Shown piece by piece: positions 23,642 through 25,968 of a stretch of 31,834 nt of DNA (its first letter is position 1; each line of letters begins with the position of its first letter). Source of the stretch: a virus (lineage: Duplodnaviria; Heunggongvirae; Uroviricota; Caudoviricetes; Peduoviridae); IMG/VR virus record IMGVR_UViG_2974619728_000001, positions 1 through 31,834 of that record. One strand, given 5' to 3'. The translations under genes were made by a program, and so were the position numbers. Under the pieces are notes generated by a model. The model did no database searches. It had not been told where the DNA came from and was given only the letters and a program-made list of their open reading frames with translations.

Positions 23642-23722
23642 TGTAATTTATTTATCTGTTTGTTTTATAAGGATAAATTAACTAAAATGGCACTATCAAC
23701 AAAACCGGAAGAGGTGCTCGCG

Positions 23723-23941
23723 ATGTTTCATTGTCCTTTATGCCAGCATGCCGCACATGCGCGTACAAGCCGCTATATCACTGACACGACAAAAGAGCGT
23801 TATCACCAGTGTCAGAACGTGAATTGCAGCGCCACGTTCATCACCTATGAGTCGGTACAGAGATACATCGTGAAGCCGGGAGAAGTCCACGCCGTAAGGC
23901 CGCACCCGTTGCCGTCAGGGCAGCAAATTATGTGGATGTGA
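23723..23941 (+). CDS. ogr: late gene transcription activator Ogr (zinc-finger), 72 aa
   Basis: MFHCPLCQHAAHARTSRYITDTT...CQNVNCSATF has the CxxC...CxxxxC Ogr zinc-finger pattern; start placed at internal Met to match 72 aa. Confidence 0.88.
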   Translation: MFHCPLCQHAAHARTSRYITDTTKERYHQCQNVNCSATFITYESVQRYIVKPGEVHAVRPHPLPSGQQIMWM

Positions 23942-23952
23942 TCACAAAAATA

Positions 23953-23980
23953 GCCCCTCAGTTGAGGGGCTTTATTTATG
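23953..23980 (+). terminator. rho-independent terminator after ogr
   Basis: GCCCCTC-AGTT-GAGGGGC stem-loop followed by TTTATTTAT. Confidence 0.7.
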
Positions 23981-23984
23981 GTCG

Positions 23985-24200
23985 ATGTGGACGCTATGTG
24001 GACAGCGGTTGACATAAATCCATTTATATCATCAGGTTAGGTGCTTTTTTTTGACACCATCCCTGTCTTCCCCCACATGATGTGGGGGTTTTTTTTATCA
24101 ATTACTTACATGCAATCAAAAGTAAAAACAGGTACTTATCGAAAGCTGTAAGGGTTTGGAGCGGTTTCAAAATTTCTTGAGTGTGGACACTATGTGGACA
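23985..24200. other. attP: attP-like region: two pairs of direct TGTGGAC(A) repeats flanking a ~180-bp segment that includes a strong hairpin/T-tract
   Basis: ATGTGGAC at 23985-23992 and 23996-24003; TGTGGACA at 24183-24190 and 24193-24200; sits between ogr and int as in P2. Confidence 0.6.
24070..24096 (+). terminator. hairpin CCCCCACAT-G-ATGTGGGGG followed by T8 inside the attP-like region
   Basis: Seen directly; may be the copied 3' end/terminator of the host target gene. Confidence 0.55.
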
Positions 24201-24215: not shown

Positions 24216-25196
24216 TTATAACGTCACTCCGCCTTTTAGTGGATTCAGAGCGACGGCATTTTGCAGATAGTCAGGCGCAAGGTGCGCATAGGCCATCGTC
24301 TGCTGAATACTCGCATGTCCCAGAATCTGTTGCAGTGCGATTATATTGCCCCCATTCATCATGAAATGGCTTGCGAATGTATGCCGCAGGATGTGGGTTG
24401 CCTGATTGGGTGGTATATCAGGCTTCACTCTGCGTAGAATCCCGCAAAACTTCTCATAATCAACTTTGAACAATTTGGCGCTAGCCTCCTCTTTAACTTT
24501 TTTCTCCAGTTCCTCAGAAATCGGCACGGTTCGCTTTTTACCGTTTTTGGTTTTCAGGAAGGTAACCCTGCAACTTGTAATCTGTGCTGGTTTTAGCGTG
24601 GCAACTTCCGTCCATCTTCCCCCAGTGCTCAGACATAAAAGCGCGACAAGTAAGTCATCACCAGCCAAAACATTTAACAGTTTTTCGATTTCTGCTTTTT
24701 CCAGGAACGTCATTTCAGGGGTGGCCTCCGCCAGTGGCGGCAGTCCGTGAATTGGGTGTTGCCCGGAAAATTCATCCAATTGAATTAATTTTGTGAACAT
24801 GCCGGATAATCGGTACATGTCACGGTTTATCGTTGCGGCACTGATGCCATCACGTAGTCGCATGGAACGATAATCCATCAAAGCCCTTTTGCTCATCCGG
24901 CTCACTGGTATATCACCTATGCCGCTGATGGTTTTGAGCAGATGATTAAACTCTTTTGTTCCATGCTCGTGGTTTTGCCCGTGATATTTCCACCAGATGT
25001 CCAGCAACTCACTCAAAGTCCGGCGGTCTACTCGCTGGCCTCCCCATTCTTTCTGACTGGCATTGGCGATTGTGTATCGCTCAAATGCTAGTGCTTCAGC
25101 TTTTCTTTCGAATTTCCTGCGGATGCGTTTTCCGTCGCGACCGCGAGGTCTAATGTCCACTTCATAGCGACCATCATCGAGCTTCTTAATTGCCAT
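24216..25196 (-). CDS. int: tyrosine integrase, P2 Int-like, about 326 aa
   Basis: MAIKKLDDGRYEVDIRPRGRDGKRIRRKF N-terminus; C-terminal HxxR...Y recombinase pattern (ATHILRHTFASH...MAYAHLAPDY); start placed at internal Met. Confidence 0.88.
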   Translation of the reverse strand: MAIKKLDDGRYEVDIRPRGRDGKRIRRKFERKAEALAFERYTIANASQKEWGGQRVDRRTLSELLDIWWKYHGQNHEHGTKEFNHLLKTISGIGDIPVSRMSKRALMDYRSMRLRDGISAATINRDMYRLSGMFTKLIQLDEFSGQHPIHGLPPLAEATPEMTFLEKAEIEKLLNVLAGDDLLVALLCLSTGGRWTEVATLKPAQITSCRVTFLKTKNGKKRTVPISEELEKKVKEEASAKLFKVDYEKFCGILRRVKPDIPPNQATHILRHTFASHFMMNGGNIIALQQILGHASIQQTMAYAHLAPDYLQNAVALNPLKGGVTL

Positions 25197-25265
25197 AAGA
25201 AAGCCCTCCGGCGCTGTATTCACCATCTTGGTAGCAAATGGTGAAAATGTAATCTTTATATAGAG

Positions 25266-25559: not shown

Positions 25560-25680
25560 TTGACATGGTGCCTATATATGGACTAAATTCCCTCAAAACT
25601 GGAATCTATATAGGTTCCATTGATTTGAGAATAAACCAGCGTCTAAACGGTTTTGAGTGGTTTAGAAAGGGCTGGATCCT
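25560..25680. promoter_or_regulatory. C/cox divergent promoter-operator switch region (Pc/Pe)
   Basis: 121-bp gap between divergent C and cox; contains TTGACA at 25560-25565 and repeated ATATA(T)GG motifs. Confidence 0.55.
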
Positions 25681-25968
25681 ATGAGGGTACCATATATGGA
25701 CGCTGAAAATTATGTGATTCAGTATCCGCTTGATGCGGTTCATGTGGATAAATTTGCTGATTTATTAGGGAAGCCAAAGACAGCCGTCAGTGAAATGGTG
25801 AAGGCAAATAAATTACCAATTATTGAATTGCGTGATCCTTGCAAACCGAAGGCTCGTGCCGGTGAAAAATGGGTTTTCATTCCTGAGTTTAATCGCGCTG
25901 TACGTGAGGCGTTTTATAACCGACCGGTTGAACAGCGTGATGCATGGCTTTTGTGGATGGGGTTGTGA
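25681..25968 (+). CDS. cox: Cox-like excisionase/transcriptional regulator, about 90-95 aa (start may be internal Met at 25696)
   Basis: Position, size and ...GEKWVFIPEFN...RDAWLLWMGL resemble P2 Cox. Confidence 0.75.
   Translation: MRVPYMDAENYVIQYPLDAVHVDKFADLLGKPKTAVSEMVKANKLPIIELRDPCKPKARAGEKWVFIPEFNRAVREAFYNRPVEQRDAWLLWMGL

Follow-up and report, generated by a model that had tools for sequence, protein, structure and literature searches.

Positions 23985–24200 of the window, by which we mean the whole stretch of 31,834 nucleotides analysed here, are very probably (at a probability of about 0.93) the attP of a P2-like phage with WPhi/L-413C-type integration. The architecture of the site, the identity of its core, the host locus, the structure of the host-prophage junctions and the relationships of the integrase are established in our analysis, whilst the att type, the core and the cpxP-fieF target have already been published and the window is a further carrier of them. 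The gain is one of annotation, with attP, core and host target now fixed for this phage; the current understanding of P2-family integration is unchanged.

The window holds the complete genome of a P2-like phage (Peduovirus). From base 1 onwards it is collinear with P2, WPhi and HQ103, to which 84–88% of the first 25 kb is ~96–97% identical. The attP region sits between ogr and int in the gene order of P2 (NC_001895), and an HTH repressor gene and the cox gene lie beyond int. Between 23940 and 24220 the sequence shares 97.5–99% identity with L-413C, HQ103, P2_AC1 and others, and ~88% with WPhi and P2-type phages. The annotation of P2 (NC_001895) gives the order ogr terminator, Int P arm, IHF, Int/attP core, Cox and Int P' arm, and in a four-way alignment of the window, L-413C, WPhi and P2 conservation with P2 covered the terminator, the arm repeats on both sides and the A/T-rich IHF region, whilst the segment between these conserved parts was unrelated to P2 and identical or nearly so in L-413C and WPhi. 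Nucleotide homology to P2 ends at 24031, inside the P-arm IHF region, and the mosaic border at which the shared late region gives way to the exchangeable att-int-immunity module consequently falls within attP itself. The hairpin that bounds the region on the left (Table 1) corresponds in the alignment to a P2 terminator with the annotation "for ogr transcript and F operon"; ogr/late transcription would stop at it, as would leftward transcription of int in the phage form.

Table 1. Features of the attP region and of the neighbouring genes, in window coordinates.
Feature	Position	Strand	Basis or remark
ogr	23660–23941		Pfam Ogr_Delta
Bidirectional terminator-like hairpin	23952–23971	.	Scored on both strands; directly after ogr, left boundary of attP
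P arm, two direct arm-type Int sites	23985–24004	+	Aligns with P2 "Int P arm" feature
Predicted IHF site H: A/T-rich block ATAAATCCATTTAT, then IHF-consensus match TATCATCAGGTTA	24014–24039	+	Position homologous to P2 IHF feature
attP core, 47 nt, GACACCATCCCTGTCTTCCCCCACATGATGTGGGGGTTTTTTTTATC	24053–24099	+	Identical to E. coli attB
Candidate core-type Int sites and overlap, GACA / CCATCCC / TGTC	24053–24067	+	Inverted-repeat search; inferred
Copy of cpxP/CpxQ Rho-independent terminator	24070–24096	+	Identical element after host cpxP
Predicted second IHF site H', TATCAATTACTTA	24096–24108	+	Perfect consensus (0 mismatches); spans core/P' border
Candidate Cox sites, GGTTTGGAGCGGTTT, two GGTTT repeats one helical turn apart	24153–24167	+	Inferred
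P' arm, two direct arm-type Int sites	24182–24200	+	Aligns with P2 "Int P' arm" feature
int, tyrosine integrase, 326 aa from MAIKKL	24216–25196	-	Pfam Int_N 2.8e-28, Phage_integrase 2.1e-19
cox	25681–25968	+	Pfam Phage_Cox 1.2e-23

Protein-binding sites, integrase and Cox

A sequence-only reading of the window had described an attP-like region with four direct repeats and an internal hairpin, and all of these elements are present. On the P side, ATGTGGAC occurs at 23985–23992 and 23996–24003 (the second copy extended to ATGTGGACA, 23996–24004), 11 nt from start to start; on the P' side, TGTGGACA occurs at 24182–24189 and 24193–24200, 16 nt beyond the int stop codon. The coordinates of the P pair had been given correctly (23985–24003), those of the P' pair one base off, with a start at 24183 in place of 24182. 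The P pair and the P' pair are themselves copies of a 19-nt direct repeat, which lie 196 nt apart with 95% identity. The motif TGTGGAC has five copies in the 31.8-kb window, four of them on the same strand within 216 nt; such a same-strand cluster of four was found in none of 2000 dinucleotide-preserving shuffles, where the maximum was three (in three shuffles). The repeats stand in the same register in L-413C, WPhi and P2, and their likeness to the arm-type Int motif of P2, which had been proposed, is borne out by their alignment with the Int P and P' arm features of NC_001895 and by their fit to the consensus of P2-type arm repeats, tgTGGaCa (PMC3448106).

The same spacing recurs in prophages of other genera. 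On the P side, both sites lie at −67/−56 from the core in six of nine other prophage junctions; one more has a single site, and three have TGTAGAC/TGTAGTC variants in that place. On the P' side, sites at +81/82 and +92/93 from the core end were found in 5 of 10 others and at +83/+94 in a sixth; two further junctions have a single site, and L040 and L050 lack any site of the TGTGGAC type. By analogy with P2, Int, a heterobivalent enzyme encoded directly to the right of attP, would bind the four TGTGGAC(A) arm sites with its N-terminal domain and the core with its core-binding domain, with IHF bending the attP arms.

Two IHF sites are predicted. Within H, TATCATCAGGTTA (24027–24039) fits the IHF consensus with one mismatch, and most P-side junctions, though not L047, carry a ATAAATCC-type block (variants include ACAAATCC and AAAAATCC). 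The putative second site, H', lies at the core/P' border, where WATCAANNNNTTR is kept in all 11 P'-side junctions (the window and ten other genomes, from Kosakonia, Yokenella, Citrobacter, Kluyvera, Erwinia, Trabulsiella, Escherichia and others) and the N positions vary. The native host sequence at this place is often GCC or GTC, and the retention of H' in phage junctions whilst the host often differs argues for selection in the phage. Over the whole window, IHF-consensus matches show no enrichment (30 vs. 26 expected), so that H' is predicted on comparative grounds.

The integrase shares 99% identity with that of L-413C, 98% with that of WPhi and 52% with that of P2. Identity to P2 Int is unevenly distributed, with 76% over residues 1–50 (arm-binding), 36% over residues 51–160 (core-binding) and 54% over the catalytic domain; over residues 51–160, identity to WPhi Int is 96%. 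A conserved arm-binding part and a divergent core-binding region fit arm sites shared with P2 and a different core. An in-frame ATG (25197–25226) lies 10 codons ahead of the start given in the L-413C and WPhi annotations and would yield a protein of 336 vs. 326 aa; the conserved Int N-terminus MAIKKLDDGRYEV begins at the downstream ATG.

Cox is 99% identical to its counterpart in L-413C, 82% to that of WPhi and 41% to that of P2. The P2 cox-box, TTAAA(G/C)NCA with at most one mismatch, is absent from 24100–24181 and 25560–25680, which fits a Cox only 41% identical to P2 Cox; the Cox of WPhi is reported as unable to complement a P2 cox mutant (PMC3936717). Exact 8-mers common to the P' spacer and the switch region gave nothing informative, and the signal for Cox sites comes from a spaced GGTTT repeat and from a local comparison of 15-mers with WPhi as a control. 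The pattern GGTTT-N5-GGTTT occurs three times in the window (0.08 expected), with one copy in the P' spacer (24153–24167) and one in the Pe-Pc switch (25649–25663). In WPhi a different element, CTA(T/G)AAGGGACTGGA, is common to the equivalent two places, and cross-comparisons between the phages score lower. Repeats spaced by one helical turn are typical for directionality factors (PMC7498355). GGTTT-N5-GGTTT is thus our candidate for the Cox sites, and Cox (excision/directionality factor and Pc repressor) bound at the P' spacer would direct excision. The third copy, at 2764–2778, is far from both att and the switch and could be due to chance or be an additional Cox target.

The core, its host target and the lysogens

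To locate the host target, 24005–24182 was searched against 5426 complete E. coli genomes. Every genome (5426/5426) gave a match, typically to query positions 49–95, which correspond to window positions 24053–24099, and mostly at 100% identity; the core length of 47 nt is our own measurement from these matches. The E. coli attB begins 24 nt past the cpxP stop codon, in the cpxP-fieF intergenic region. In NC_000913.3 a 58-nt ncRNA, cpxQ, is annotated there, starting 10 nt after cpxP, and the core consists of CpxQ nt 15–58 (the last 44 of 58 nt) plus 3 nt. CpxQ is an RNase E-processed, Hfq-dependent sRNA of ~60 nt which makes up nearly the whole cpxP 3' UTR and is exceptionally conserved (PMC9438474; PMC4817254). 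The identification of the core as CpxQ is based on the NC_000913.3 annotation and a review (PMC9438474), not on a covariance model; at Rfam gathering thresholds, applied to the window and the K-12 locus, the core had no match. At the K-12 locus Rfam did match the sRNA ES036 (CssrF) between pfkA and sbp (L005 4749–4790, 48.2 bits), which is unrelated to attP.

The hairpin in the core, CCCCCACAT-G-ATGTGGGGG (24070–24088), has perfect 9-bp arms around a 1-nt loop centre and is followed by T8 at 24089–24096. It had been pointed out as a strong hairpin with its T-run, and its score is that of an intrinsic terminator; a folding energy of −16.5 kcal/mol (z = −2.65) was obtained for the 47-mer. The further suggestion that this internal terminator was a copy of a host gene 3' end and would mark the core proved right, as 24053–24099 is identical to the cpxP 3' UTR and terminator. 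At the loop (core position 28, window 24080) E. coli varies, with A in most genomes and C in K-12-type genomes; this C is the only difference between K-12 and the core, which is 97.9% identical in K-12-type genomes. All phage core copies that we examined carry loop A.

Recombination would join the 47-nt attP core with the identical chromosomal sequence. The terminator copy would restore the sRNA and its terminator at attL and leave a second copy before fieF at attR (ogr-P-core-fieF), where fieF would keep its own promoter. The connection between the core and CpxQ is made at the level of annotation and fits the known preference of these phages for the 3' ends of RNA genes. In the literature searched, which is incomplete and from which subscription journals are mostly missing, we found no paper that links CpxQ with a prophage or attB; the att work predates the naming of CpxQ, which probably explains the absence of a published statement that the core is CpxQ.

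At occupied sites one junction reads cpxP-core-P' spacer-P' arm-int and the other D-ogr-P arm-core-fieF, so that the attB search suggested by the sequence-only reading did find host genomes sharing an identity block at prophage junctions. Using a 110-nt attL-type probe and an attR-type probe with a coverage threshold of ≥80%, the attL-type junction (cpxP-core-P') was covered in 792 of the 5426 E. coli genomes and the attR-type junction (P-core-fieF) in 728, which implies a P2-like element at cpxP-fieF in ~14%, about one in seven, of complete E. coli genomes. Reading one lysogen in full showed attL, attR and a prophage of ~32 kb. Prophages at this locus are also on record: E. coli W carries a WPhi prophage at cpxP-fieF, with other P2-like prophages at rybB and cyaR (PMC3032704), an O157 study reported a 31-kb prophage at cpxP/fieF (PMC7609406), and in a Salmonella Infantis preprint cpxP and fieF are ~31.7 kb apart in the prophage-carrying strain.

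Beyond E. coli, a 36-nt exact core pattern was searched in species-representative genomes and returned 116 stretches from >20 enterobacterial genera, mostly empty cpxP 3' ends, with ~20 phage junctions. A single core thus gives P2-like phages an attB in >20 enterobacterial genera, because what they target, the 3' part of CpxQ, is extremely conserved. Paired attL and attR junctions were recovered from four genomes: Yokenella regensburgei (L019/L056), Citrobacter meridianamericanus (L062/L095), Kluyvera sp. (L117/L053) and Escherichia sp. (L072/L105). In these pairs the host form reads GACACC...T8-GCC or -GTC and the phage form (TT/AT/CG)CACC...T8-ATC; attL combines the host left end with the phage right end, attR the converse, and the first 2–3 nt and last 3 nt of the 47-mer segregate with the flanks. 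Ends that segregate in this way are what reciprocal site-specific exchange within the shared block leaves behind.

Several records depart from the simple lysogen. E. coli 1332KP (L129, NZ_CM173849.1 273981–274149) contains an intact attP-like junction, matching 95% of the probe at 91% identity and flanked by D, ogr and a hypothetical gene on one side and by int, C and cox on the other, with three core copies in the record; it is most simply read as two P2-like prophages in tandem at cpxP-fieF. In Citrobacter amalonaticus P55 (L040 1044–2930), two core copies 1.8 kb apart surround ORFs of 339 and 154 aa, and the arm repeats are TGTAGAC/TGTAGTC, not TGTGGAC, a variant also found in L007 and L022; what they enclose may be a small element, a remnant or satellite-like, which uses the same CpxQ attB and differs in arm specificity. 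In the bacterial assemblies of Kosakonia oryziphila (L007) and Trabulsiella guamensis (L094), core copies are phage-flanked on both sides and thus attP-like, and could represent tandem prophages or a circular/excised phage form assembled into the contig.

These data bear on two other accounts of the region. It might serve intergenic regulation and termination only, with the repeats acting as operators for another regulator and the true att core elsewhere in the genome, and the existence of two terminator-like hairpins would suit such a role; however, host-prophage junctions fall at exactly 24053–24099 in hundreds of genomes, the repeats coincide with annotated P2 Int sites, and the rest of 24005–24182 has no match to empty host sites, which leaves this account next to no credibility. 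Only slightly more credible, and still very improbable, is the proposal that the natural attB is in Yersinia and the match in E. coli secondary. It draws on the closest records, L-413C, HQ103 and vB_YpM_50, all of which list Yersinia pestis as host, yet none of the 116 stretches with the core pattern is from Yersinia, whereas the full 47-mer is in every E. coli genome. Nilsson et al. (2011), who noted that integration sites were already identified for P2, WPhi, PhiD145 and 186, found the attP core of L-413C to equal that of WPhi and a matching attB in no Yersinia genome, and concluded likewise for L-413C (PMC3448106). The natural hosts of the phage are accordingly Escherichia and its relatives rather than Yersinia.

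Position of strand exchange and possible effects on the Cpx circuit

Where in the core of this WPhi/L-413C-type attP the strands are exchanged can be narrowed from the pattern of identity. The core holds two inverted repeats with a 7-nt spacer, GACA/CCATCCC/TGTC (24053–24067) and CCCCCA/CATGATG/TGGGGG (24070–24088), the left of which reads AGACA/TGTCT in attB. We give roughly even odds to an exchange near the left end of the block, with CCATCCC (24057–24063) as the predicted 7-bp overlap. The identity block is strongly asymmetric: no more than 4 nt of it precede CCATCCC and 36 nt follow, up to the 3' end of CpxQ. In elements that target tRNA genes, the identity block extends from the crossover to the 3' end of the gene, which is thereby rebuilt; the likeness of the asymmetry here favours a crossover at the left end. 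The block to the right of it would then be a replacement for the CpxQ 3' part and terminator, leaving cpxP/CpxQ intact at attL. Furthermore, phages of other genera become identical to attB from core position 3, 4 or 5, never further right (position 5 in Trabulsiella, TTCGCCATCC), and since the overlap must match in both partners, a start at or before position 5 points to an overlap at or just after position 5.

The alternative keeps the same attP and core and places the exchange inside the terminator palindrome, with CCCCCA/CATGATG/TGGGGG as the site and the overlap centred on the hairpin loop. Of the inverted repeats in the core that have a 7-nt spacer it is the strongest, with arms of 6 bp vs. 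4–5 bp, and the published WPhi/L-413C map position, 4104392, falls near the middle of the block by our own coordinate conversion. However, the overlap would then include the A/C loop polymorphism, so that a K-12-type attB would be heterologous there, and the 17 nt to the left of the palindrome, identical across many genera and with a sharp end at position 3–5, would be left unexplained. The lysogen E. coli 2014EL-1343-2, moreover, has loop A (phage-type) at attL and loop C (K-12-type) at attR, the loop base going cleanly with the right flank. An attL with a C loop at 100% identity was absent among the probe matches in the 5426 E. coli genomes, and no phage with a C loop was found; with A at attL, C at attR and no C-loop phage, the exchange lies to the left of core position 28 if the host was C-type. 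There are only two C-loop attR junctions, so that the loop base is seen to go with the right flank in one or two lysogens, possibly from one integration event, a pattern suggestive of the exchange position rather than decisive for it. On balance we consider exchange within the palindrome unlikely.

As the phage copies carry loop A, a C-type host that becomes lysogenic appears to have its CpxQ loop base changed at attL. That integration is not neutral for the Cpx envelope-stress circuit seems improbable to us, though two routes can be imagined. In the attL of E. coli 2014EL-1343-2 (L126 1288–1700), the int strand has no terminator-like site from the int stop codon to inside cpxP, and in a lysogen the terminator at 23952–23971 is ~32 kb away at attR, so that the leftward Pc-C-int transcript loses its phage terminator. 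Read-through from int could thus run antisense to CpxQ and the cpxP 3' end, dampening or sponging the sRNA. At attP or attR, the truncated CpxQ copy downstream of ogr (nt 15–58, with terminator and U-tail) could be released as a phage-made CpxQ variant. If either were true, a common prophage (~14% of E. coli genomes) would be a modifier of a well-studied sRNA regulon.

Comparison with known attachment systems

The attP described here is largely that of the coliphage WPhi and the Yersinia/E. coli phage L-413C, with an identical 47-nt core, the same arm sites and arm spacing, and the same cpxP-fieF host site. Of the two it is closer to L-413C, where the whole attP is 97.5% identical, the C repressor 100% and Cox 99%, and from which it differs by a few point changes, such as T for G in the T-run at 24050. 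WPhi is further removed, with a different spacer between core and P' arm (88% identity over attP as a whole), an immunity repressor of 56% and a Cox of 82% identity, and presumed Cox sites of the AAGGGACTGGA type rather than GGTTT-N5-GGTTT.

With P2 the phage shares two TGTGGAC(A) sites per side, a homologous terminator, P arm and IHF region and, with the predicted IHF and candidate Cox sites, the order Int-IHF-core-Cox-Int. The P' arm, in contrast, lies outside int here and overlaps the int end in P2. The doubt raised at the outset as to whether the core was that of P2 locI was justified, in that the P2 27-nt core AAAAAATAAGCCCGTGTAAGGGAGATT has no match in the window at up to 3 mismatches, and the site is cpxP-fieF, not locI. 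An att site of P2 sensu stricto (locI) was rejected on the absence of both the P2 locI core and the P2 cox-boxes.

A wider comparison is with integrases that use the 3' ends of RNA genes, including those of 186 at tRNA-Ile, Fels-2/SopE-phi at ssrA, and P2-like prophages at rybB and cyaR. As in these systems, a block that would run from the crossover region to the 3' end of the RNA gene would rebuild the gene, and a conserved RNA provides a target in multiple genera. The arm sites are of the P2 type, unlike those of 186, and the target differs from those of the other RNA-gene integrases in that CpxQ is a 3'-UTR-derived sRNA, cleaved from an mRNA and not independently transcribed.
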